Assembly (NCBI GenBank): GCA_963729715.1
Contig: CAVSPA010000005.1
Coordinates: 256,001 to 320,000 of the forward strand
Length of the DNA: 64,000 nt
Reading direction: 5' to 3'
Source: an uncultured delta proteobacterium
Lineage (GTDB): Bacteria > Desulfobacterota > Syntrophia > Syntrophales > UBA2185
The translations under genes and the position numbers were made by a program. The notes under the pieces were generated by a model. The model did not search any database, was not told the DNA's origin, and saw only the letters and a program-made list of their open reading frames with translations. The stretch's first letter is position 1. The number at the start of each line of letters is the position of its first letter. Of the stretch, positions 43,392-61,146 are shown one piece after another.

Positions 43392-43486
43392 ATGAAACCA
43401 GCAACAGATGCCGGATCTCAGCAGTAAGAGTGAAGCTCCCCTTTTTTCACTTGCAAAATGACTTTTCTTTAAGGAGACTTTTTTCT

Positions 43487-45409
43487 ATGTCTCAAAAAAT
43501 ACCAGAATATCGTCGTAAGCTATTGATTTGTCTTCTTCTTACGTTGGTAGTGCTCGCTGCATTCTGGCAGGTTAGGAACAGCGATTTCGTCAATTTCGAT
43601 GACCCGAGGTGCACCACAGAAAACCTGCATATACAGGGCGGATTGAATCCGGAATTTCTGAAATGGGCCTTCACGACGAGTCATGCCGGCTACTGGCAGC
43701 CCCTTACCTGGTTGTCCTTCGCGATGGATTATCAGCTGTTCGGACTCAATGCAGGAGGATACCACATCGTCAATCTTCTCTTGCATATAGTCAACACCTT
43801 ATTGTTGTTTCTAATTTTCAACCGCATGACCCACGCTCTGTGGAAAAGCGCCTTTATGGCTGCTCTATTCGCCCTTCATCCCATCCATGTGGAGTCTGTG
43901 GCCTGGATAGCTGAGAGAAAGGATGTTCTCAGCGCCTTCTTCTGGATGCTCACGATGGGAGCTTATGTCCTCTATGCGGAGAAGCCGGGAGTGAGGAAAT
44001 ATCTGCTCACCATTGTATTGTTTTCCTTCGGACTCATGGTGAAGCCAATGCTGGTTAGTCTGCCATGTGTGCTGTTAGTACTCGATTACTGGCCGCTGGG
44101 CCGCCTTCGCTTCAATGACTCCCTTGATGTTCCAAAAATACCAGAATCAAAAAAAGAAAAGAAGAGTGCGAGAAAAATCTCAGCTTCAGCTAGAAGCAAA
44201 GAGGCCACGCTACCGGAGCAGTCACAGTTTTTACAAAGGTTATGGCCTGTCATACGAGAAAAAATCCCTTTCTTTGCCCTCTCGGCTATCTCAAGTATTG
44301 TGACTGCCATAGGGCAACAAAAGGCGGGGGCGATGGAATCTCTCGAAATACTTCCCATCGCCACACGAATCGGCAATGCCTTGATCTCTTATATACGTTA
44401 CATCGGAATGACCATATACCCGCACGGTCTGGCCGTGTTTTATCCATATAGGGGAACGATTTCACCATGGGAAGTCTTCCTTGCCGCTGCATTCTTATTA
44501 ATCGCAACCTTAATGATCTTTCGATGGGCAGCAAAGATGCCCTATCTTGTCATGGGATGGTTATGGTACCTGGGAACACTCGTTCCTGTAATCGGCATAA
44601 TACAGGTGGGAATGCAGTCTATGGCAGATCGATATACCTATATTCCGATAATCGGTCTTTTTGTGGCAACCACGTGGGCGGTACCTGATATCACAAGAAA
44701 TTGGCGTTATCGGCAATACATACTTTCCGCCGGAGCAGTAATTGTTTTATCAGCTTTAATGTTCTCAACCCGGATGCAGGTCAAGTACTGGCAAAACAGT
44801 ATCACTCTTTTTGAGCATGCCATTCAGGTTACGGATAATAATTATCTGGCGCACAACAACCTGGGGGTTGCTTTGAGCAGCACTGGAAAAAGAGAAGAAG
44901 CCATGGCGCAATATAGAGAGGCTATCAGAATAAAACCAAACTATGAAAATGCCATCTTCAATTTAGCAAATAACTTATCTGCACAAGGCAGGACTGATGA
45001 GGCTATTCTATGTTATCAAGAAGCTCTTAGGCTACGGCCAAATTATGCCAAGGCACATAACAATCTTGCAACACTGTTAATTTCAAAGAAGATGTTTAAG
45101 GAAGCAATTGGTCACTACCAGGAAGCACTCAAAACCGATCCAACAAATTCGGCTACGCACTATAACCTGGGAGCAGCCTGGCTGTCGATTGATCACTTTG
45201 AGGATGCCGTTGGTCAGTTCCAGGAAGCAGTAAGAATCAATCCCCGATTTAGTCAAGCTCACAACGCCTGGGGGATAGCCCTAGCCCGATCGGGGAAGAC
45301 TGCTGAGGCCATCAACCATTTCAGGGAGGCTCTACGAATAAAACCTAATTTTAGAGAAGCAAATGACAACCTGAGGGCAGCATTGGCGCAACAGAATATG
45401 CGTCGTTGA
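43487..45409 (+). CDS. TMTC-like GT-C membrane protein with C-terminal TPRs (copy 1)
   Basis: FVNFDD, WQPLTW, HPIHVESVAWIAERKD, ADRYTY, WQNS, then multiple TPRs. Confidence 0.85.
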   Translation: MSQKIPEYRRKLLICLLLTLVVLAAFWQVRNSDFVNFDDPRCTTENLHIQGGLNPEFLKWAFTTSHAGYWQPLTWLSFAMDYQLFGLNAGGYHIVNLLLHIVNTLLLFLIFNRMTHALWKSAFMAALFALHPIHVESVAWIAERKDVLSAFFWMLTMGAYVLYAEKPGVRKYLLTIVLFSFGLMVKPMLVSLPCVLLVLDYWPLGRLRFNDSLDVPKIPESKKEKKSARKISASARSKEATLPEQSQFLQRLWPVIREKIPFFALSAISSIVTAIGQQKAGAMESLEILPIATRIGNALISYIRYIGMTIYPHGLAVFYPYRGTISPWEVFLAAAFLLIATLMIFRWAAKMPYLVMGWLWYLGTLVPVIGIIQVGMQSMADRYTYIPIIGLFVATTWAVPDITRNWRYRQYILSAGAVIVLSALMFSTRMQVKYWQNSITLFEHAIQVTDNNYLAHNNLGVALSSTGKREEAMAQYREAIRIKPNYENAIFNLANNLSAQGRTDEAILCYQEALRLRPNYAKAHNNLATLLISKKMFKEAIGHYQEALKTDPTNSATHYNLGAAWLSIDHFEDAVGQFQEAVRINPRFSQAHNAWGIALARSGKTAEAINHFREALRIKPNFREANDNLRAALAQQNMRR

Positions 45410-50264: not shown

Positions 50265-51164
50265 TCAGCCCTCGGCCCGATTAAGGTACTCATTCCATCT
50301 GGTGTCAACCCACCTCTGGAGCTGCCTCAGTTGCTCAATGCTCATCTTCCGGAATCGCCCCTGTCTTTCCACGTAATTGATGACAGACAGCTTATTCCCT
50401 TTTTCCGCAAGTGTCTTACTTCTCCCGGTAAAGCGAAATTTGCCATCCTCAATCTCGAAGAGGACGACGATCCCCGTTTCTACGGCAAGCCTCCCGATAC
50501 GCACGGTGTCCTTGGGCGCATAACCCCATCCCGGCGGGCAGGGGACGGCGATCTGCACGTACCTCGCTCCCTTGATGCGCTTGGCCTTGACAAATTTATC
50601 GTACAGGTCAATCGGATAGGCCGATGAAGTGGTGGCGAGATAAGGTAGGTCGTGGGCTTCCATGATTCGCAGCATATCCTTCTTGGGTTGCTGCTTGGTG
50701 AGCACCGGCGTGGTAGAGGTCAATGCCCCCATGGGCGTGGCACTAGAGCGCTGTGTGCCCGTGTTCATATACCCCTCGTTGTCGTAGCATACATAGATGA
50801 AGTCCGTTCCTCTTTCGGCCGCCCCGCTCAGGGCCTGAATTCCCATGTCGAAAGTACCGCCGTCTCCGGCGATGGCCACGACAGTAATATCCGTGCGGTT
50901 CACAGCATTCAAGCCGGCGACAAGACCAGAAGCGGAGGCAGCCGTACTGGCGAATGTGCAATTGAGGGCGGGAATAGTCACGGATGTCGTCGGATACAGA
51001 CCGTGGAGAACTGTCAGGCAGCAGGCCGGAAATGTCACAATCGTATTTTCACGCAGTGCTTTTAGAACATAGCGATATGCGAGGGAGAGGCCGCAACCCT
51101 GGCAAGCTCTCTGCCCCGGGAGCATATACTCTTCAATATTAACCTTGAACAGGTTCTCTGGCAT
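50265..51164 (-). CDS. 2-oxoacid:ferredoxin oxidoreductase beta subunit
   Basis: ACQGCG, TPP motif GDGG..DNEGYMNTG, PCPPGW. Confidence 0.92.
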   Translation of the reverse strand: MPENLFKVNIEEYMLPGQRACQGCGLSLAYRYVLKALRENTIVTFPACCLTVLHGLYPTTSVTIPALNCTFASTAASASGLVAGLNAVNRTDITVVAIAGDGGTFDMGIQALSGAAERGTDFIYVCYDNEGYMNTGTQRSSATPMGALTSTTPVLTKQQPKKDMLRIMEAHDLPYLATTSSAYPIDLYDKFVKAKRIKGARYVQIAVPCPPGWGYAPKDTVRIGRLAVETGIVVLFEIEDGKFRFTGRSKTLAEKGNKLSVINYVERQGRFRKMSIEQLRQLQRWVDTRWNEYLNRAEG

Positions 51165-51168
51165 ATTA

Positions 51169-52377
51169 TCACTCCGTAAAACAGTTTAGCCATTTCGGCG
51201 CAGGTTCCGTATCTCCAGCAGCGATTGCATCCCGTGATGACCGTACAGCCTCGGCGAGTTCCCTCGCCTTGACATCCCGACCCCCAAGGCCACAGATGTA
51301 ATTGTGGATAGGCAGTCGTATATCTGTCCCGTAAAAGGCCGCCTTGATTTCGGAACATAGCGCTCCTTCATACCCGTAACTGATCCCCTTTTCGAAGACG
51401 CAGATGGCCTTTGCCTTCCTGAAGGCCGCGCGGACATCTTCTTTCGGAAAGGGCCTGAAGACCCTGATTCCGATAACTCCGGCATTAAGCCCCTCTGACC
51501 TCAGCATATCCACGGCTGTGGTGGCTTCGCTTGCCACAGAACCCATCCCAACAAGTATCATCTCGGCGTCATCTGTCTTGTATTGCCATAGCATGCCGCC
51601 GCAATCTCTCCCGAAGGCACCGGCAAATTCACGGCTCGTGGAGACAATAACGTCGCGGGATTCAATGAGGGCCTTCTGAAGCTTGTATCGCATTTCCATA
51701 TAGCCGTCACACAGCACACCCTCTGTATTAGCCCTTCGCCATGGGAAAAGAACAGGGTTGATATTCATGGGAGCCTCCGGCGAGAGAATCGTGTGGGGTT
51801 TATAAGGGGGCAGGAAATCGGAGACAACCACAGCATCAGGGATATCCACAGGCATCATCGTATGAGACATGACAAAACCATCATAACAGATCATGACGGG
51901 CACATAAACCGACTCGGCAATCCGGTACGCCTGAATAATGGAATCAATAATCTCCTGGTTGTCCCGGCAGTAAATTTGTATCCAGCCTGTATCGCGCTGT
52001 GCGATGGAATCCTGCTGGTCGTTGAAGATCGTCCACGGAGCGCCCACTCCACGGTTGATGCAGCACAACACAATAGGCAGCCTTGCGCCGGCTGCCCAGT
52101 GTATCTGCTCATGCATGTAAAGCAGTCCCTGGGAGCTCGTGGAAGTGAAGACGCGTGCCCCCACAGTGGATGCCGATATACAAACCGCAAGAGCGGAATG
52201 CTCTGATTCAACGCGGATATATTCTGCCTTGAGTTCTCCGCCCTCAATCAACTGGGAAAGCATCTCTGTCACAGAGGTCTGCGGCGTAATGGGATAGGCC
52301 GCCACGACCTGAACATGGCTGAGCTTCGCCCCAAGAGCCGCGGCCTGGTTGCCCGTTATGATTTGCACTTCAGCCAT
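51169..52377 (-). CDS. 2-oxoacid:ferredoxin oxidoreductase alpha subunit
   Basis: AYPITPQT, ESEHSA, TSSQGL, GLGGRD. Confidence 0.92.
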   Translation of the reverse strand: MAEVQIITGNQAAALGAKLSHVQVVAAYPITPQTSVTEMLSQLIEGGELKAEYIRVESEHSALAVCISASTVGARVFTSTSSQGLLYMHEQIHWAAGARLPIVLCCINRGVGAPWTIFNDQQDSIAQRDTGWIQIYCRDNQEIIDSIIQAYRIAESVYVPVMICYDGFVMSHTMMPVDIPDAVVVSDFLPPYKPHTILSPEAPMNINPVLFPWRRANTEGVLCDGYMEMRYKLQKALIESRDVIVSTSREFAGAFGRDCGGMLWQYKTDDAEMILVGMGSVASEATTAVDMLRSEGLNAGVIGIRVFRPFPKEDVRAAFRKAKAICVFEKGISYGYEGALCSEIKAAFYGTDIRLPIHNYICGLGGRDVKARELAEAVRSSRDAIAAGDTEPAPKWLNCFTE

Positions 52378-52663
52378 TCTTCTCCCCCTCGTTCACCATG
52401 GATATCGCTTTTCCGGGACACTCCTCAGCACATATGCCGCAACCTTTGCAGTATTCCAGATCAATTTCCAGGGGAATCGTCGCTTTGATTACTCCTTCCG
52501 GACAATAGAGCCAGCAGAGAAAGCAGGCAGCCTTTTTCTTAATGGAGGGGATACACTTTGAATGATCGCAAACGGGCCTCATGTCCCGCCAGTCCCCCGT
52601 CTTCCCCGCTTCTCCAACTGCCGGTGTGGCCATGGCGGAAATATTCGTGTCTCTTTTCTTCAC
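52370..52663 (-). CDS. 2-oxoacid:ferredoxin oxidoreductase delta subunit (2[4Fe-4S])
   Basis: TGDWR..P, CFLCWLYCPE, CKGCGICAEECP. Confidence 0.92.
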   Translation of the reverse strand: MKKRDTNISAMATPAVGEAGKTGDWRDMRPVCDHSKCIPSIKKKAACFLCWLYCPEGVIKATIPLEIDLEYCKGCGICAEECPGKAISMVNEGEKNG

Positions 52664-52665
52664 AA

Positions 52666-53241
52666 TTATTGTCCTCCATTGGCGGTTTTCATTATGGTCT
52701 GCGCAAATGCATCTCGCAGGGCGACGATATTGGCAGCAGAAACAGCGCTTGATAATTTAGCCTTCAATCCTTTTTCCATCGCATCAAGAGACACAAGGTT
52801 TGATACCCTGGCAAATGCCCCCAGCATCGTGGTGTTGACAATCGGCTTCCCCTCCCTTATGAGATGGTTTTTGAGGGCAATATTTCCCGCATCAACCGTG
52901 GCTATGCTGATCCTCACGTCAAAATTCAGTTCATCAGGCTTCAAGGGACTGTTGACAATGATAAGCCCCCCTTCTTTGAGCGTTGTCAGAATGTTTACGG
53001 CAGAAAGGAGAGATGAATCCAGAACAACAGATATATCTGCATACTCAATCTGCGAGACCATCCGGACAGGCTCTGACGAGATCCTGGTTGAAGCTGTCAA
53101 CGGGGCACCTCTTCTTTCCGGACCGAAGGTCGGTGCGGATGTGACCCCTTTGAATCCTTGAATATAAGCTGCTTCTGCCAAAATCTGCGCAGCGATGACA
53201 ACGCCCTGACCGCCTCTTCCGTGCCATATTATTTCATGCAT
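52666..53241 (-). CDS. 2-oxoacid:ferredoxin oxidoreductase gamma subunit
   Basis: MHEIIWHGRGGQG, FGPERRGAP, NTTMLGA. Confidence 0.92.
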   Translation of the reverse strand: MHEIIWHGRGGQGVVIAAQILAEAAYIQGFKGVTSAPTFGPERRGAPLTASTRISSEPVRMVSQIEYADISVVLDSSLLSAVNILTTLKEGGLIIVNSPLKPDELNFDVRISIATVDAGNIALKNHLIREGKPIVNTTMLGAFARVSNLVSLDAMEKGLKAKLSSAVSAANIVALRDAFAQTIMKTANGGQ

Positions 53242-53391
53242 ACGGCCTACCTTTATGAATTTAATTACATCAATTTCCAAATGCACATGCACTATTGTCA
53301 TTTCGAGCGGCGAGAGAAATCTTGAGATCACTCATCGCTGACGCTTCATCACAGTTAAGGGTTTCCGCTTGTCCAAAAGCCAGGTTTTATT

Positions 53392-53430
53392 AAAATAAAA
53401 AGGCCATGGATTTTTTTACCCATGGCCTTT
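53392..53430 (-). terminator. intrinsic terminator of the leader attenuator
   Basis: Minus strand AAAGGCCATGGG-TAAAAAAA-TCCATGGCC-TTTTTATTTT. Confidence 0.85.
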
Positions 53431-53450
53431 AGGATGATATAAACGTACTA

Positions 53451-53567
53451 TTATCCTGTCCTAAAAACGACGGGTGACGCGGGTAGCCGCGCCAACAGAA
53501 GAGCGAGGAGGAGCAAGCGAGAATCGCACAAATAAAAAATCTCTCTTCTTATTGATCCAAAGGTCAT
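53451..53567 (-). CDS. leucine-rich leader peptide (38 aa)
   Basis: MTFGSIRREIFYLCDSRLLLLALLLARLPASPVVFRTG*; lies between a promoter and a terminator. Confidence 0.75.
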   Translation of the reverse strand: MTFGSIRREIFYLCDSRLLLLALLLARLPASPVVFRTG

Positions 53568-53598
53568 TTTCAGGAAATCCTGTCCAAGGTTCGCGGAA

Positions 53599-53627
53599 AA
53601 CATAGAATAAATAACAGCAGATGTCAA
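53599..53627 (-). promoter_or_regulatory. sigma70-type promoter for leader and oxidoreductase operon
   Basis: TTGACA, 17 bp, TATGTT on the minus strand. Confidence 0.75.
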
Positions 53628-53649: not shown

Positions 53650-55377
53650 TCACCTGAATCCCTTCTTCACCGCCATAGCGTTTTTAAGGTTCTCCTGCGC
53701 TAATGCGTAATCCGGGTTGAGACGCAAAGCTTCCCGATAGTTGGCGATGGCCTCATCCAGCTTTCCCTGATAAAATAGCGCGTTTCCCAGATTGTTATGT
53801 GCCTTTGCATAGTCCGGACTGATGCGGATACTTTCACGAAACTGATTAATTGCTTCATCGAGTTTTCCTTGTGAAGCCAGCATTATGCCCAAATTGTAGT
53901 GTGCATCGGCCGGATTGTTGATACTGATAGCCTTCTGGAAGCGGGCAATAGCCTCTTCTCTTTTTCCCTGGAGGGCCAGAGCATAACCCAGGTTATTTTG
54001 CGCCCAGGCATTTGCAGATGTAACCTTTATGGCATGCTCATAAAGGATAATATTATTGCGCCAAAAACCAATCTGGACATACGTCATAATTACACAAGCG
54101 AAAAGAATCCCCACAGCGGCGGTAGTGAGTGCGATTCTTCGATGACGCCAACGATTGAGGAGTTCCGGAGCACCCCAGGCAATCACGATGAATATGCCGA
54201 TAAGTGGCACATAGGTATAGCGATCGGCCATAGACTGCAATCCCACCTGTACAAATCCAATGACGGGGACGAGAGTTCCCAGATACCACAACCACCCAAC
54301 TATAAGATAAGGAAACCGCCTAGCTGTTCGAATAGCCAAATAGGTTATAACCATTAGAACTAAAACGGCCGATATTGCCTGCCATGAGGAAAGCGCAACA
54401 CCGACATAAGGATAAAAGATGGAGAGCTTTACAGGCCACAGCATCTTTCCAATGTAGCTGACATAGGAAATCACCGCATTGGCAATGCGGAGGCCGAGGG
54501 GATACAACTCCATGGGTTTCACGATCCGATGCTGGGCGTAGACTGTTATGAAGCAGAAGAGTATGGTGATAGCAAAAAACGGTATCTTCTCTTTTAGTAA
54601 CGGCCGCATCTCCTGCCACAGGACATGCGATTCTATATTACCCTTGGTATGTACGGTATCCTTGCCGGGCCGCTGCTGCGACTTCTGCTTCTTCTTCGCG
54701 CGGCTTGCCGGCCCAGGTGTTGCGGCAGCATTACGGACACCCGCCGTAGCCATCTGGAGCCGCTTTAGGGGCCAGTAATCCAAAAGCAGCAGGACAACGG
54801 GCAAGGTGACCAACATAGGCTTGGACATGAGACCCAGCAGGAAGAATGCAAGGACAAATAGATACCTCTTATATCCGGGACGTTCCACATAGTAAGCGTA
54901 CGCCCCCATGGTGAACATCCAAAAAAGGGTGGAGAGGACATCCTTCCTTTCAGCGACCCAAGCGACAGATTCTACATGGAGGGGATGCAGCGCAAAAAGC
55001 CCTGCCACAAAGGCACTCTGCCAGAGGGCGTTTGTCATACGGTGGAGAATCAGGAAGAGCAAGAGAGTGTTGGCAATATGAAAGAAGAGGCTGACCAGAT
55101 GATGCGGCCCCGGTTTCAGTCCGAATACCTGACAGTCCAGCATGTGTGAAAGCCATGTAAGTGGGTGCCAATTATGGGCGTGCGGCTCGGAAAAGGCCCA
55201 GGCTATGCCCTTTAGAGTAATCCCGTCCTGTACATAACGGTTCTCTGTCACATAATCGTTATCATCGAACGATATGAACTCGTGGTTTCTGACCTGCCAG
55301 AAGACCGCGACGGTTGTCATTGACAGGGCAATGCAGACTGCCAATACTAAATAGTTTCTATTTATCTGACTTGTCAT
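53650..55377 (-). CDS. TMTC-like GT-C/TPR membrane protein (copy 2)
   Basis: FISFDD, WHPLTW, HPLHVESVAWVAERKD, ADRYTY, TPRs. Confidence 0.85.
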   Translation of the reverse strand: MTSQINRNYLVLAVCIALSMTTVAVFWQVRNHEFISFDDNDYVTENRYVQDGITLKGIAWAFSEPHAHNWHPLTWLSHMLDCQVFGLKPGPHHLVSLFFHIANTLLLFLILHRMTNALWQSAFVAGLFALHPLHVESVAWVAERKDVLSTLFWMFTMGAYAYYVERPGYKRYLFVLAFFLLGLMSKPMLVTLPVVLLLLDYWPLKRLQMATAGVRNAAATPGPASRAKKKQKSQQRPGKDTVHTKGNIESHVLWQEMRPLLKEKIPFFAITILFCFITVYAQHRIVKPMELYPLGLRIANAVISYVSYIGKMLWPVKLSIFYPYVGVALSSWQAISAVLVLMVITYLAIRTARRFPYLIVGWLWYLGTLVPVIGFVQVGLQSMADRYTYVPLIGIFIVIAWGAPELLNRWRHRRIALTTAAVGILFACVIMTYVQIGFWRNNIILYEHAIKVTSANAWAQNNLGYALALQGKREEAIARFQKAISINNPADAHYNLGIMLASQGKLDEAINQFRESIRISPDYAKAHNNLGNALFYQGKLDEAIANYREALRLNPDYALAQENLKNAMAVKKGFR

Positions 55378-55396
55378 CTTTCAGCCGTAATGAGAT

Positions 55397-57343
55397 TCAT
55401 TGCTTTCTATTATGCATCGCAAGGGCATTCTTCATGTTGTCCTTTGCCAGCTTGAAGTCGGGGTTAATTCGCAGGGCCGCACGGTAACTGTCAATGGCTC
55501 CGTCAATCTCCCCCTGCGAAAGCAAGGCACTTCCCAGATTGTTATGGGCATCTGCCAAATCAGGCTTGAGTCTGATGGCCTCCCGAAAGTGGGTGATGGC
55601 TTCGCCTTCTTTACCCAGTAGGGCCAGGACGTAACCGAGGTTATTTTGATATTCTGCAGAGCGAGGTTTAAGTCTCACAGCCTCCTTGAGTTGGACAACA
55701 GCTTCTGTCAAATTACCCCCGCGAGCCAAGGCATTACCCAAGTTATAATGTCCATTCGAGTGATCCGGATTGATCATCAAGGTTTCCTTGTAGTCTGCAA
55801 TGGCCCTTTTATAATCGCCCAGATTGACCCTTGCGTTTCCCCGATTGTAATAGGCATCATAAAACCGCGGGTTCAACTTAATCGCCTTATCGTAATACGT
55901 TAGCGCCTCGGACGCATTTCCCGCATCGGCCAGCGCCTTCCCATAATTGCTTAACGGCCTCGGTTTATTCGGAGATTTCTTCAGACAATCGGCCCAGAGG
56001 GTATAATCACTTTTCCAGACCTTATTGCGCTCATAGGTCAATACGGTGTTTGTTAAGATCAGTAAAAACAGCGCTCCCACTGAGACCTGCCTGTACCAAT
56101 CCCATATGAAGTAAAAGACCACTGCAGTCAGCACAAGAAAAAACCCAAAACCGGGTAGGTATGTCCGATGTTCAAATATGACATTCTGGGAAATCGGGAT
56201 AATACTTGATTCTACGGACAGGGTTAAAAAACCCCAGAATATCCCAAAGGAAATAAGCCGATACCTCCGGAAAAGCAGTATGCCGAGAACAAAAATCCCG
56301 GCCAGGGATAACAGGCCCAAGAGCGTATGCCATTCAAAAAAGCTATGCGAGATCGGATAATCATAATCCAGATTCTGATTTACGGGTAGTATGAATAGCC
56401 TCATATATGTCAGTATAACGCTAAACTGTGTGATGAGATATTCCCAAGCGGTTATGGGATAATCGTAGCCTTGGTGAAGAAGAGGCGGTATGGGGTTAAA
56501 TATCTCGAATGAGAAATTGAGGAAAAAAAGGACAATGAAAATCCCGAGGATGGTGATAGGAATCTGAATGCCCCTGTCTTTTAAATCGATCTTCCATGCA
56601 TCGGTCCTTATAAAGCTGAACTCGTACAAAACAAGGGCGAAGGGTAGTGTAAAAACGATCTCCTTGGTCAGCATCCCTAAGACCGCGCAAAATAGGGCGC
56701 CCGCATAGTAAAAGAAAACCTGTGTGCCTCTATTTCCCTCCCCAAGTCTGCCCTTCACATACAACGCCAGCGACAACAGATAAAACAGCGTGGCCAGTGA
56801 AGCCAGCCGTTGCACGATGTACGTGACCGATTGGGTTGCCAGGGGATGGGATACGAACAACAAGGCGGTAAATAGGGCCATTGCTCCTTTATGTCGGCTT
56901 ATCGGCTGAGCCCTCATTACAGGCGTTGCCATCGTCAGCAGTACGAGCCACCATACCAATATGGCATTGACAATATGTATCGCCAGATTAACGAGGTGGT
57001 ATCCCCACACATCAAGCCCATGAAAATAATAATTCAAGGCAAATGATAGATACCCTATGGGACGACTGGGGTAAAACCCCCACCAGGCTTGAACGTCGGA
57101 GAGATTCCGTACGGCGATATTCTCCTCAATGGTTGGGACATCATCAAAATGAAAAGAGCAATCAAACGAGTTGGAATACGCTGTTACGCCCACGAGACAA
57201 ATAAGCAGTATAGATATCAGAGTCCAGGGGACGCTTCTGTTCTTAACTTGTTCTTTTCCCTTACTGGGAAAATCACTTATCTTCTTTTTCGTAGTCTTCG
57301 ACGTCCGTCTATTACCCACGCTACCTCCGACGGTCTTTTTCAA
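55397..57343 (-). CDS. TMTC-like GT-C/TPR membrane protein (copy 3, divergent subfamily)
   Basis: FHFDD, RP, HPLATQSVTYIVQR, TKE, DYDYP, EHRTYLP, TPRs. Confidence 0.85.
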   Translation of the reverse strand: MKKTVGGSVGNRRTSKTTKKKISDFPSKGKEQVKNRSVPWTLISILLICLVGVTAYSNSFDCSFHFDDVPTIEENIAVRNLSDVQAWWGFYPSRPIGYLSFALNYYFHGLDVWGYHLVNLAIHIVNAILVWWLVLLTMATPVMRAQPISRHKGAMALFTALLFVSHPLATQSVTYIVQRLASLATLFYLLSLALYVKGRLGEGNRGTQVFFYYAGALFCAVLGMLTKEIVFTLPFALVLYEFSFIRTDAWKIDLKDRGIQIPITILGIFIVLFFLNFSFEIFNPIPPLLHQGYDYPITAWEYLITQFSVILTYMRLFILPVNQNLDYDYPISHSFFEWHTLLGLLSLAGIFVLGILLFRRYRLISFGIFWGFLTLSVESSIIPISQNVIFEHRTYLPGFGFFLVLTAVVFYFIWDWYRQVSVGALFLLILTNTVLTYERNKVWKSDYTLWADCLKKSPNKPRPLSNYGKALADAGNASEALTYYDKAIKLNPRFYDAYYNRGNARVNLGDYKRAIADYKETLMINPDHSNGHYNLGNALARGGNLTEAVVQLKEAVRLKPRSAEYQNNLGYVLALLGKEGEAITHFREAIRLKPDLADAHNNLGSALLSQGEIDGAIDSYRAALRINPDFKLAKDNMKNALAMHNRKQ

Positions 57344-57523
57344 CGATAGAGAGAACTAATAAATACGCGATAGTTGAGCAAAACAACTGTGATGTCCAAC
57401 GAACTTACTCTAAAATGATGCCAGCAGGCAAGAATTACGAAAAGATCATGACGAACATTTAATTTTTTTGTCCACGTTCTTGAAACATCAAACCTCCGTT
57501 ATAAGCAGAGCAGTACACAAAGA

Positions 57524-59482
57524 TCATCTCTTCCTCCTCCGCTGAGCAAGAGCATCCTCGAGGTTTTTTTGTGCAAGCGCATAGTCCGGTTTGAGAAGTA
57601 ATGCTTGCTGAAAACTGCGAATGGCTTCATCAATCCCGCCCTGTAAAAACAAGGTGTGTCCCAGATTGTTGTATGCTTTTGCATAGTCCGGCTTGACGCG
57701 GATAGCTTCCCGAAAGTGATAAATGGCTCCACCGAAGTCACCGCGTGAGAGCAGCATAGTACCTACATTATAATGCACCTCCGCCGAAGCATCTGACATC
57801 ACCGAGCGCAAATCCGATTTGATCTCGAGTGCCTTGGAAAAAACTGCCATTGCTTCAGTGAATTTCCCTTGCGAAGCCAGGGCCTCTCCCAGATTTACAT
57901 AGGCTTTTATGTAATTCGGGTTAATCCGGATTGCCTCACCATAATGACTGATAGCTTCTTCGATACGGCCTTGTTCTTGCAGGGATATGCCGAGGTTATT
58001 GTTTTCCTCGTAGCAATTTGGACAAATCCGGACGGCTTCGGAATAATGATGGATGGCCTCTTCAAATTTTCCCTGCGTGAGCAAACTATGCCCCAAATTG
58101 CTGTGAGCAGTATAGTTATTTGTTGTCACGTCGATGGCATGTGTAAACAGGGTAATGCTGTTTTGCCAGTACTGCACCTGTTTCCAGGAAACGAATGAGA
58201 GGATGCAAATTATGATGACAGCAAGTGTTGCAAGAGCAGCATTCATATGTCGCCATTTCTTTATAAGCTCAGGCACTCCCCAGGCAACCATGATTAGAAT
58301 GCCGATAATGGGTACGTAGGTGTAACGGTCCGCCATGGCCTGCACGCCAACTTGGACAAGACCTATAACGGGAACCAGTGTCCCCAGATACCAGAGCCAC
58401 CCTGTCGTGAGATATGGGTAGCGCTTCGCGGTCCAAAGAATCAAGTACGTTGCAATGATAAGAAAGAGGACTGCCCCAATGATCTCCCAAGTCGGAAGCC
58501 TGCCGGGGTAAGGATAAAGAACCGCAAGATTTGCGGGCCAGACTATCTTCCCAATATAACTGCAGTAAGAGACAATGGCATTTGCAATGCGGGCGGACAA
58601 GGGATAGCTTTGTAGAGAACCCATCGCCCCGCTTTTCTGCTGCGCTATGTATGTCACTATACTAAGTGCCAGAGAAAGAACAAAGAATGGAACCTTTTCC
58701 AGTATAATATGGCCGATGGCAGGCTGTTGCTGGCTCTGCTTCGCGGTCTTGTCTGCCTGCTTTGGCTTCTGTCTATTCCTTACACGTTCCTTTTTCTTGC
58801 CTTGTGTGTTCAGAGATTCTTCAGATTGCGTGTGCTTATCTACTGACGGTTTCCCTATTGTCACGCGACGGAGGGGCCAGTAATCAAGAAGGAGCAGGAC
58901 AAAAGGAAGTGTGACTACCATGGGTTTGGCCATGAGGCCCAGGGAAAAGAAGAGAAGAGTGAGAAGATACCTCTTTAGCTCTCGCCTTTCAACATAGAAA
59001 GCATAAGCCCCCATGGTGAGCAGCCAAAAAAATGTGGAGAGGACGTCTTTGCGCTCGGCAACCCAGGCAACAGACTCCACATGGAGAGGATGAATGGCGA
59101 AGATAGCGGCTACAAAGGCGCTTTGCCACAGGAACTTCGTCATCCGGTGAAGTATGAGGAATAGCAAAAGCGAATTTGCGATATGAAAGAGAAGATTAAC
59201 GATGTGGTAGCCTGTCGGGTTCAGCCTGAACAAGTCGTAGTCCAGCATATAGGATACCCATGTAAGCGGATGCCAGTATCCTGTATAACTGGTCGTCAAT
59301 GCCCAGCGAATTCCCCCTGTCGTGATACCATTCTTTACATAACTGTTTTCCGTCACGTATTCATTATCATCGTAATTTGTGAAATCACAATGATTGACCT
59401 GCCAGTAAATGGCAAAGGCGGTAATCGCCAGAAAGACGCAGACGTATACTGTGCGGTGATTGTCACTTAATCTATTCATCAT
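57524..59482 (-). CDS. TMTC-like GT-C/TPR membrane protein (copy 4)
   Basis: FTNYDD, WHPLTW, HPLHVESVAWVAERKD, ADRYTY, TPRs; ATGA overlap with the hflX stop. Confidence 0.85.
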   Translation of the reverse strand: MMNRLSDNHRTVYVCVFLAITAFAIYWQVNHCDFTNYDDNEYVTENSYVKNGITTGGIRWALTTSYTGYWHPLTWVSYMLDYDLFRLNPTGYHIVNLLFHIANSLLLFLILHRMTKFLWQSAFVAAIFAIHPLHVESVAWVAERKDVLSTFFWLLTMGAYAFYVERRELKRYLLTLLFFSLGLMAKPMVVTLPFVLLLLDYWPLRRVTIGKPSVDKHTQSEESLNTQGKKKERVRNRQKPKQADKTAKQSQQQPAIGHIILEKVPFFVLSLALSIVTYIAQQKSGAMGSLQSYPLSARIANAIVSYCSYIGKIVWPANLAVLYPYPGRLPTWEIIGAVLFLIIATYLILWTAKRYPYLTTGWLWYLGTLVPVIGLVQVGVQAMADRYTYVPIIGILIMVAWGVPELIKKWRHMNAALATLAVIIICILSFVSWKQVQYWQNSITLFTHAIDVTTNNYTAHSNLGHSLLTQGKFEEAIHHYSEAVRICPNCYEENNNLGISLQEQGRIEEAISHYGEAIRINPNYIKAYVNLGEALASQGKFTEAMAVFSKALEIKSDLRSVMSDASAEVHYNVGTMLLSRGDFGGAIYHFREAIRVKPDYAKAYNNLGHTLFLQGGIDEAIRSFQQALLLKPDYALAQKNLEDALAQRRRKR

Positions 59483-61146
59483 AGGAGGGGCGATCTTGAT
59501 TCTATAGGATTCATCCTCGGGCGGGTTTTATTGATCATCGCCTCCATCCTTTCTGCGAGTGGGGGAAGTGTTTTCGTATTCAGGGCTGATATGGCTATGG
59601 CATCAAACCTTTGACAGAGGTTTTGCAGCGTTGCTTTGTCGGAGAAACGATCTTTCTTGTTGAAGACAAGAAGGGTGGGCTTCCCGATAATCGCAAGCTC
59701 CTCCAGGATTTTCTCAACTGCCGCTATATGGCTTTCAAAATTTTGGTTGCTTATATCAATTACATGCATAAGAACGTCGGCTTCATGGAGTTCATCAAGG
59801 GTGGCCCGAAAAGCGGCGAAGAGGTCCCGGGGAAGGTCTCGTATAAAGCCTACCGTGTCGGTGATGATGGCCTCCGTATCGCGTGGAAATCGGAGCCTCG
59901 AGCTTTTTGGATCAAGGGTTGCAAACAGGCGATCCTCCGTAAAGACGCTGCTTTTTGTGAGCGTATTCAAGAGCGTCGATTTCCCGGCATTGGTGTACCC
60001 GACGATAGATACTACGGGAAGTCCCATTCTTCCCCGTTTAACGCGACGTTGTTCCCTGGCCCTTTCGATATCATGCAGTTCACGTTCCAGCCGGTGGATT
60101 CGATCCCTCACACGGCGGCGGTTTATCTCGAGTTTGGTCTCTCCCGGCCCCCTACCGCCGATACCTCCCGTGAGCCTCGACATGGCCGTATTTTTTGTCA
60201 CGAGCCTAGGGAGGAGGTACTTCAACTGTGCAAGCTCTACCTGGAGCTTGCCCTCTCTGCTGTGGGCACGACGGGCGAAGATATCGAGAATGACCTGCGT
60301 GCGGTCGATAACTTTCATCTCTGTAAAATCAGTAATGGATCTGAGCTGTGCCGGTTGCAGTTCGTGGTCGAAGATTAGAAGATTAGCCCCTATCTGCATG
60401 GCCCTGATGACGAGCTCCGACATTCTCCCTCTGCCAAGGACGAATCGAGGATCTATCTGATCACGGTACTGGATGATGCTGTCGAAGACTTCAACCCCGC
60501 AGGAGCGGGCAAGCTCCTTCAACTCATCCAAGGAGCCCCGGCTGTCGACAAGGGGACTCGTTTCCACGCGGATCAGTATGGCGCGGTCAGTAGAATCTAC
60601 CTTCCTCGTCATCTGTTTTTTTGCAAATTCTCTCTCCAAGGCCTGAATGAAGGCGAGAAAATTGAGGTCCATCTCCGACGGACGCGCCTTTTCCATGATA
60701 AGCCAGTACCTGCCATCGGGGTTTTCCGGAATCAGATGGGCAGTGTGGGCATAACCAGGAAGTCCATCCTCTCCCGTCTCCACGGCTGAGATTAGATCGA
60801 AGCGGAGTAGAGCCAGGTCCGTGAGGTCATCACTAGTGAGTCCCTCACCGTTTAGATGGGTATGGATTAGGCGAAGGCCCTTGAAACGCGTGGAAGAAGA
60901 ACGGAAGCCGTCGAGTCCGGGAATCATGATGTCTTTGGGTGAGCCGGCGATTACGTATGCGACCTCGCCTCTGCGGCTGATCAGGATGCCTATCTGACGG
61001 TTGATTTCTCGTGAAATGGATGTGAGTTGTCTCGCCAGTTCGTAGGTGATGATACGTTCCGGCGGTACTTTCCTCCGGTAGAGTTGACCGATCCTCCTTA
61101 TCTGTTCTGCTCCGAGACCGGTCAGATTGCCATAGACTTTATTGAT
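59479..61146 (-). CDS. hflX: GTPase HflX, long form; probable ATC start at 61146
   Basis: ILDIFARRA, GGRGPGETKLE, GYTNAGKST, LFATLD, DTVGF; the frame stays open for 73 codons upstream of ATG 60927. Confidence 0.93.
   Translation of the reverse strand: MNKVYGNLTGLGAEQIRRIGQLYRRKVPPERIITYELARQLTSISREINRQIGILISRRGEVAYVIAGSPKDIMIPGLDGFRSSSTRFKGLRLIHTHLNGEGLTSDDLTDLALLRFDLISAVETGEDGLPGYAHTAHLIPENPDGRYWLIMEKARPSEMDLNFLAFIQALEREFAKKQMTRKVDSTDRAILIRVETSPLVDSRGSLDELKELARSCGVEVFDSIIQYRDQIDPRFVLGRGRMSELVIRAMQIGANLLIFDHELQPAQLRSITDFTEMKVIDRTQVILDIFARRAHSREGKLQVELAQLKYLLPRLVTKNTAMSRLTGGIGGRGPGETKLEINRRRVRDRIHRLERELHDIERAREQRRVKRGRMGLPVVSIVGYTNAGKSTLLNTLTKSSVFTEDRLFATLDPKSSRLRFPRDTEAIITDTVGFIRDLPRDLFAAFRATLDELHEADVLMHVIDISNQNFESHIAAVEKILEELAIIGKPTLLVFNKKDRFSDKATLQNLCQRFDAIAISALNTKTLPPLAERMEAMINKTRPRMNPIESRSPLL

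Follow-up and report, generated by a model that had tools for sequence, protein, structure and literature searches.

The window, by which we mean the whole 64,000-nucleotide stretch of DNA that was analysed, carries a tightly packed set of genes for the gamma, delta, alpha and beta subunits of a 2-oxoacid:ferredoxin oxidoreductase of the pyruvate/2-ketoisovalerate (POR/VOR) subfamily, preceded by a leader region (Table 1). An ATG was adopted as the start of the gamma gene in place of a GTG at 53331. The region 53650-60927 (minus strand) holds an hflX-like gene and then three tandem TMTC-like membrane/TPR genes, and a fourth TMTC-like copy was found at 43430-45409 (plus strand).

Table 1. Positions of the leader elements and operon genes in the window
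Feature	Position	Strand	Remarks
Sigma-70-type promoter	53599..53627	-	-35 TTGACA / 17 nt / -10 TATGTT; score 10/12
uORF start region	53563..53575	-	13/13 complementary to antiterminator 5' strand (pairs with 53471-53459); candidate re-initiation block or anti-antiterminator
Leader-peptide uORF, 38 codons	53451..53567	-	Leu sensing run, codons 18-28, at 53516-53484
GC-rich hairpin after Leu run	53475..53494	-	Candidate RNA polymerase pause hairpin (putative role)
Antiterminator 5' strand	53459..53475	-	Ends just 5' of the uORF stop codon
Antiterminator 3' strand	53418..53434	-	Includes the terminator 5' arm
Intrinsic terminator	53390..53430	-	Hairpin 53430-53399 plus U tract
REP-like dispersed repeat	53297..53323	-	In variable terminator-gamma spacer, outside the switch; 14 pattern matches in the genome
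Oxidoreductase gamma subunit	52666..53241	-	TIGR02175 above cut-off
Delta (ferredoxin-like) subunit	52370..52663	-	TIGR02179 above cut-off
Alpha subunit	51169..52377	-	PorA_Arch 446 bits (cut-off 550); VorA 385 bits (cut-off 646)
Beta subunit, last gene of operon	50265..51164	-	VOR-beta 364 bits and PorB 341 bits, both under the cut-off of 405

A first-pass annotation had read the region upstream of the operon as a complete leucine-type attenuator, and most elements were recovered as it had drawn them. The promoter that it had claimed was present and tied for the best promoter-like score within 48-57 kb. As the scan returned 15 promoter-like sites compared to 10.5 ± 3.4 in shuffled sequences, this site is weak by itself and its real support is conservation: the -10 box A and T tract at 17-19 were invariant or nearly so among 28 orthologous leaders, in a comparison for which TTGAC served as the alignment anchor. 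Reading of the codons bore out the short frame with eight Leu in codons 18 to 28 (TTG CTC CTC CTC GCT CTT CTG TTG GCG CGG CTA), and a ninth Leu was codon 13. At the genome Leu frequency of 9.4%, the probability of at least eight Leu among 11 codons is 7.7e-7 per run of that size. The GC hairpin was present at the end of the Leu run, but with a 4-nt loop (CUAC) in place of the CTA proposed and a stem of 7 bp plus a closing U-A pair. The antiterminator strands paired at 16 of 17 positions as claimed, the sole mismatch being C.C, and the claimed intrinsic terminator with its U tail was likewise found. The pairing of the uORF start region with the antiterminator 5' strand had been overlooked. Folding of the entire leader gave -66.5 kcal/mol (z -4.9), and none of 200 shuffled sequences was as stable. 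The spacer between terminator and gamma gene was 155 nt in this genome and 15-273 nt in orthologues; relatives have different mobile-looking inserts in the spacer position that the REP-like repeat occupies here.

A gamma orthologue was detected in 41 of 61 genomes at 51-100% identity (paralogues, ≤45%), the named relatives being Syntrophales, Syntrophaceae and Smithella. The leader lay directly upstream of the orthologous gamma gene in 38 of these 41 Syntrophales genomes. The three exceptions were G024 (L077), with the promoter only, G042 (L029), with no leader, and G053, in which the region is split across contig ends. In G042 the gamma gene directly follows hflX. In a second, partly overlapping set, the leader was present at 29 of 32 clade loci; two of the others end too soon, and the third, L190, has lost the uORF and antiterminator. 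With its promoter and a weakened terminator retained, L190 represents a natural loss of the switch, as do G024 and G042. The leader was absent from the distant homologue loci of this set (0 of 9). A covariance model was built from 23 oxidoreductase (POR) leaders and 21 leuA leaders, which match it by construction; the model also found unseen leaders, for example in genomes G022, G027 and G043 (42-72 bits). No leader match was obtained at 18 sister-enzyme loci of other orders, in G248 or at seven loci of the paralogues of this genome, and none of the 18 weaker matches read in a 121-genome sample of the phylum preceded an oxidoreductase, two of them having no identifiable downstream gene.

The leaders were then compared at the level of codons and of RNA pairing. 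When the most Leu-rich frame was scored, at least five Leu were found within 11 codons in 36 of 37 POR leaders and an in-frame ATG or GTG start in all 37, one of the 38 POR leaders having been missed by the search pattern. The open frame and the positions of start and stop were kept in all of the scored leaders. Across the 38 leaders, 260 of 418 codons of the sensing run (62%) were Leu and only 21 were Ile, Val, Met or Phe, and all six Leu codons occurred, which favours codon sensing over hydrophobicity. In POR leaders the antiterminator core mostly fell in frame 0 and in leuA leaders mostly in frame 2; it is therefore conserved at the RNA level. The antiterminator was 92.2% paired with 24 two-sided changes, a result seen in 0 of 500 shuffles (slid controls, 36-60%), and the GC hairpin was 87.2% paired with 38 two-sided changes and a covariation of 0.468 compared to 0.187 in shuffles (0 of 500); both sets of shuffles ignore relatedness. 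These results agreed with the proposal of the first-pass annotation that orthologous upstream regions should keep a Leu-rich uORF and covarying stems. The start-region helix was paired in 78.7% of cells among 44 leaders with covariation not above shuffles.

Folding of the nascent RNA, under the assumption that the ribosome covers 13 nt downstream of the A site, yielded the predicted switch. A ribosome stalled in the middle of the Leu run left the terminator arm sequestered (p>0.5) in all 38 leaders, and a ribosome at the stop codon did so in none of the 38, which is the geometry that the earlier annotation expected when the ribosome-covered region is constrained. Without a ribosome, the antiterminator still won in 31 of 38 leaders, and the covariation of the start-region helix was not above that of shuffles; the helix is a candidate protector that may give default termination when the leader is untranslated. 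The minimum-free-energy structure of the full-length RNA combined the start region:antiterminator pairing with the terminator, and at equilibrium the terminator won in full-length RNA even in the stalled states. Read-through would therefore need kinetic precedence, that is, the order of folding, as in other attenuators. A search of Rfam detected no family at gathering score, the best match being 20.4 bits and to unrelated families, with 0 matches in five loci.

A blastn search of the leader against its own genome matched contig C7 at three in-register places, namely, the start region, the antiterminator core and the terminator. This paralogous leader (G000:C7:102373-102611) precedes leuA-leuC-leuD, the LeuA protein scoring above the TIGR00973 cut-off, and each of the 30 leuA loci examined has a sister leader. 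The two kinds of leader have in common their promoter spacing, start region, Leu core, antiterminator and terminator. Only the oxidoreductase leader and the leuA leader combined a Leu-rich uORF with a terminator-like site among the 178 such sites of the genome. An unrooted leader tree placed 20 of 21 leuA leaders on a branch apart from the POR leaders (95/91), with L058 falling among the POR leaders; monophyly of the POR leaders was not rejected (p-AU 0.43). The separation of 20 of 21 leuA leaders across families indicated that the duplication of the POR and leuA leaders is old, and a recent copy from leuA in this genome was ruled out on the same ground. The genome-wide scan yielded 16 rows with codon-biased uORFs, several of which are probably chance. 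The sensed residue matched the pathway in Val/Ile or Ile leaders before two ilvB-like genes, which were named by eye from the translation, in an Ile leader before cimA and in a Phe/Tyr/Trp leader before a DAHP synthase gene. This match suggested that the organism uses leader-peptide attenuation routinely and that the sensed residue tracks the pathway.

Further leaders were noticed during these scans. The Val/Ile- and Ile-rich leaders before the ilvB-like genes and cimA are at G000:C5:672901, C5:670399 and C6:46178, and a His-rich uORF precedes a terminator at C11:12665. The Phe/Tyr/Trp-rich leader L064 (G000:C6:210902-211091), with a related terminator and two tandem terminator hairpins, precedes a type I-beta DAHP synthase gene, as do the similar leaders L157, L159, L173 and L205. 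L155 and L172 (G134:C32:197-283 and G167:C24:8029-8115) have Lys-rich uORFs on the same antiterminator/terminator scaffold before dihydrodipicolinate synthase and are candidate lysine attenuators; lysine leader-peptide attenuators are not known to be an established kind. A Phe-rich leader with eight Phe and a terminator (L079, G041:C48:115769-115965, minus strand) precedes a thiolase-domain gene, a noncanonical target. Another Phe-rich leader (L224, G000:C4, terminator near 288922, minus strand) precedes an operon for a LivK-like binding protein, an ABC transporter and an acyl-CoA ligase, which could serve uptake and activation of phenylacetate for Phe synthesis as a parallel salvage route. 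In L158 and L169, from other orders, a Tyr/Phe-rich leader precedes a gene labelled by eye as class I aldolase-like, possibly of the alternative 3-dehydroquinate route.

The leader has the features of a classical attenuator: a uORF with clustered codons, a terminator before the first gene, a mutually exclusive antiterminator and the stall/stop geometry. When leucine is plentiful, the ribosome would pass the Leu codons, reach the stop codon and cover the antiterminator 5' strand, which would let the terminator form. Under leucine shortage, it would stall in codons 18-27, and the antiterminator would capture the terminator 5' arm and allow transcription of the operon. The sensed species would be charged tRNA-Leu, the leader being of the same family as the Syntrophales leuA leader. 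The homology to leuA leaders, the conservation next to the operon, the covariation and the uniform folding geometry all supported the reading given by the first-pass annotation, a leu-type ribosome-mediated attenuator. We regard it as very highly probable that this is a real, conserved leucine attenuator in which stalling and read-through occur as predicted, and we infer that the operon would be induced by leucine limitation.

Such a switch is familiar from the enterobacterial leu leader (leuL; Rfam Leu_leader) and from the ilvGMEDA, ilvBN, thr, his, trp and pheA attenuators, in which a uORF with cognate codons and mutually exclusive antiterminator and terminator structures lead to read-through on starvation. 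The Syntrophales leaders resemble these in their clustered cognate codons, their exclusive antiterminator and intrinsic terminator, and the predicted read-through on starvation. They differ in having a longer uORF (about 32-41 codons), no Rfam sequence match, a stop codon placed where the antiterminator 5' strand ends, so that the ribosome would mask that strand directly, a hairpin after the Leu run that excludes the antiterminator strand, and a ferredoxin oxidoreductase as the target. Reportedly, Lopatovskaya, Seliverstov and Lyubetsky predicted in 2010 attenuators of the classical type for leuA, ilvB and the trp and his genes of delta-proteobacteria, and their gene list is not known to include an oxidoreductase target; the leuA copy of the Syntrophales leader may already be in print via that survey. 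T-boxes precede such oxidoreductase operons in Firmicutes. The ilv-leu operon of Staphylococcus aureus is described as controlled by a leucine-rich, cis-acting, leucine-responsive leader-peptide attenuator (PMC5794164); it is alike in its leucine-responsive leader peptide and differs in that its targets are the canonical ilv-leu genes. In Geobacter, a conserved 5' sequence before iorAB-paaK is listed under tryptophan, and a T-box is placed before leuA (PMC2700814). The likeness lies in a 2-oxoacid:ferredoxin oxidoreductase operon appearing, in a related group, among amino acid-biosynthetic operons with conserved upstream sequences; the Geobacter case differs in its IOR-type enzyme, its link to tryptophan, its leuA T-box and the lack of a stated mechanism for iorAB (PMC2700814). 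Attenuator-like leaders of Streptomyces coelicolor are reported to show nonclassical behaviour when mutated (PMC1262725). Our literature searches found no published description of a leucine attenuator on an oxidoreductase operon, and nothing relevant turned up in PMC12452182, PMC3543383 or PMC11304471. The mechanism of the switch is textbook; its target is unusual.

The downstream enzyme was assigned to the four-subunit POR/VOR subfamily from gamma and delta matches above cut-off and strong alpha and beta matches. The VOR equivalog cut-offs were missed, as were those of pyruvate synthase (Table 1), and the models were split, with alpha nearer to PorA and beta nearer to VOR. The nearest solved chain to alpha was 9BT4_B, from a methanogen pyruvate:ferredoxin oxidoreductase. 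VORs are known from Thermococcales, along with anabolic enzymes of methanogens. Compared to VORs and to the methanogen enzyme 9BT4, the Syntrophales enzyme is likewise made of four subunits (gamma-delta-alpha-beta), retains the YPITP motif as well as the Arg of the alpha subunit, and has a beta subunit that scores higher on VOR than on PorB; it differs in falling under the VOR and POR equivalog cut-offs, in forming its own supported clade (SH-aLRT 98), which includes one genome outside the order, and in its predicted repression by leucine. This genome has at least eight gene sets for 2-oxoacid:ferredoxin oxidoreductases, and a separate paralogue on C7, whose beta subunit passes the PorB cut-off at 434, is predicted to cover pyruvate synthesis. 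No acyl-CoA ligase or CoA transferase was found inside the operon. Assignment of a substrate from the neighbours was rejected, since kdtA, rpe, acyl-CoA dehydrogenase, hflX and TMTC-like genes are syntenic yet outside the operon. Among related enzymes, the sister enzymes of other orders at L247-L251, L253 and L256 consist of alpha and beta, with no gamma or delta match within the 12 kb examined. A leader-less sister oxidoreductase operon outside the order has an Lrp/AsnC regulator directly upstream on the same strand (L262:6834-7292), which possibly represents amino acid control by another mechanism. At L219 (G000:C5:373.6-376.9 kb), a transporter gene follows an operon resembling that of oxalate oxidoreductase, the alpha subunit of which scores above cut-off.

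The distribution of the enzyme was compared with that of leuA in 174 genomes of at least 95% completeness. Both genes were present in 62 genomes, the enzyme only in 32, leuA only in 74 and neither in 6, compared to 17.5 with neither expected by independence; the associated Fisher test (p=1.7e-5) overstates the significance, as related genomes do not count as independent and the assemblies are incomplete. When five of the six genomes with neither gene were rechecked (all but G327), G289 moved to the enzyme-only class. The enzyme was then kept in 33 of the 38 genomes without a leuA match and both genes were absent from the other five (G046, G248, G285, G291 and G327), which indicates that auxotrophy or other routes exist. 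leuA was missing from most members of four families and from some members of four more, and the four families without an enzyme match all keep leuA. Three genomes, G022 (100% complete), G027 (98%) and G043 (89%), had no LeuA, CimA or LeuC match, but all three retain ilvD, a class IV aminotransferase, the enzyme operon and a Leu leader. A divergent LeuA was rejected for the 13 leuA-negative genomes inspected and for G032, as their LeuA-like matches were CimA or lyase-like. The long HMGL-like matches were CimA orthologues (four were scanned, all above the TIGR00977 cut-off), and such an orthologue was present in 10 of the 14 genomes, G032 among them. G032 itself was dropped as a leuA-less genome because the start of leuA with its leader was found at a contig end. 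A promiscuous CimA together with LeuCD and LeuB could make leucine. The LeuB search gave no match above cut-off, even in the genome under study.

An operon switched on by leucine shortage bears the sign of a biosynthetic operon, and the enzyme should therefore supply leucine. Isovaleryl-CoA, CO2 and reduced ferredoxin would yield 2-oxoisocaproate, which a class IV aminotransferase would then aminate. Isovalerate carboxylation leading to leucine has been shown in rumen bacteria by isotope labelling. The reaction proposed here is the same, with the Syntrophales operon and regulator nominated by genomics only. Leucine formation by carboxylation of isovalerate is described for rumen anaerobes (PMC7356843), and expression of isovalerate degradation for Syntrophales (PMC7382037). 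Work on the VOR of Clostridium sporogenes describes a catabolic VOR-like operon that responds to branched-chain amino acids by induction and not by repression, and also notes that VOR-like sequences can prefer aromatic substrates, which counts against isovaleryl-CoA (PMC13290082). Given the attenuator, the enzyme is likely to run reductively as a 2-oxoisocaproate synthase that bypasses LeuA, LeuC, LeuD and LeuB, and side activity on isobutyryl-CoA and 2-methylbutyryl-CoA is plausible. Taken as a whole, an attenuator joined to a leucine-biosynthetic, isovaleryl-CoA-carboxylating enzyme is, on the genomic evidence, a fairly probable account of the locus, the substrate and direction being its predicted parts.

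Other explanations were weighed against this account, two of which concern the leader. The terminator might end only the transcript of the upstream TMTC-like gene, as the first-pass annotation had considered, with an incidental uORF and a separate downstream promoter for the operon. The end of that gene, at 53650, lies 23 nt ahead of the -35 box, no terminator-like site separates the two, and the gap from terminator to gamma gene is wide in this genome; however, no minus-strand promoter-like site was found in 53399-53241, 15 of 28 orthologues have a gap of only 15-30 nt, and the gene on the upstream side differs among loci and is divergently oriented in at least five of them (L081, L083, L084, L086 and L088). 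The probability of this explanation is negligible. It is most unlikely that the leader is real and yet is no ribosome sensor of Leu codons, being instead a T-box-like or protein-switched RNA or encoding a hydrophobic peptide that is itself the signal. The CUC-GCY-CUU core is conserved at the nucleotide level, in the peptide a hydrophobic run comes after basic residues, and leuA of Geobacter is assigned a T-box (PMC2700814). Against such an explanation, frame, start and stop position were kept in every scored leader with Leu retained over other hydrophobic residues, and in sister leaders the run changes to Lys or to aromatic residues along with the target pathway. A T-box was rejected, since no Rfam family matched and the antiterminator is a near-continuous helix without a UGGN bulge.

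The remaining two explanations accept the attenuator and assign the enzyme differently. The enzyme might feed the ordinary LeuA route by converting isobutyryl-CoA to 2-oxoisovalerate or acetyl-CoA to pyruvate, and the best alpha match (PorA_Arch), the methanogen origin of the nearest solved chain and the co-occurrence of leuA in 62 of 94 enzyme-bearing genomes would fit this, as would the breadth of VORs (PMC13290082). The enzyme and its Leu leader persist, however, in G022, G027 and G043, which gave no LeuA, CimA or LeuC match; there, more pyruvate or 2-oxoisovalerate could not be turned into leucine, but 2-oxoisocaproate could. The leader, moreover, counts Leu alone, unlike the Ile/Val leaders of ilvB, and another paralogue passes the PorB cut-off; we consider precursor supply unlikely. 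An enzyme working oxidatively under leucine shortage, for example from 2-oxoisovalerate to isobutyryl-CoA that enters an unrecognised chain elongation to leucine, or on another 2-oxoacid, appears very unlikely. 2-Oxoacid:ferredoxin oxidoreductases are reversible, the leuA-less genomes checked retain ilvD and the genome has many CoA-ester enzymes, all of which would suit an oxidative role. On the other side, the loci read showed no elongation genes within or next to the operon, several more steps would be needed than in direct carboxylation, and no chain-elongation route from isobutyryl-CoA to leucine is known to us.

The chances are about even that the enzyme is a dedicated leucine-biosynthetic 2-oxoisocaproate synthase whose attenuator was gained early in Syntrophales, that leuA was then lost repeatedly in at least six families and that carboxylation of isovaleryl-CoA is the sole leucine route there. 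A cluster at C7:443.5-450 kb of this genome (L223:7533-14101) encodes a two-subunit CoA transferase, a carboxyltransferase, an enoyl-CoA hydratase and two HMG-CoA-lyase-like proteins, the second below the family cut-off, and likely serves isovalerate metabolism. Its carboxyltransferase was present in three of five leuA-less genomes checked and absent from G022 and G043. That lineages with this cluster run it backwards from acetyl-CoA to isovaleryl-CoA, as a LeuA-independent de novo leucine pathway, is very unlikely.

The regulator in this case serves as a functional label, marking one of the oxidoreductase gene sets of the genome as a probable leucine supply in a way that is beyond the reach of sequence models. 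The complementary distribution of the enzyme and leuA points to CO2-fixing salvage of isovalerate in the energy-starved syntrophs of digesters and peat. If this is true, reconstructions that name leuA-less Syntrophales as leucine auxotrophs may be wrong, and the old isovalerate carboxylation pathway would gain a named bacterial gene set and a regulator.
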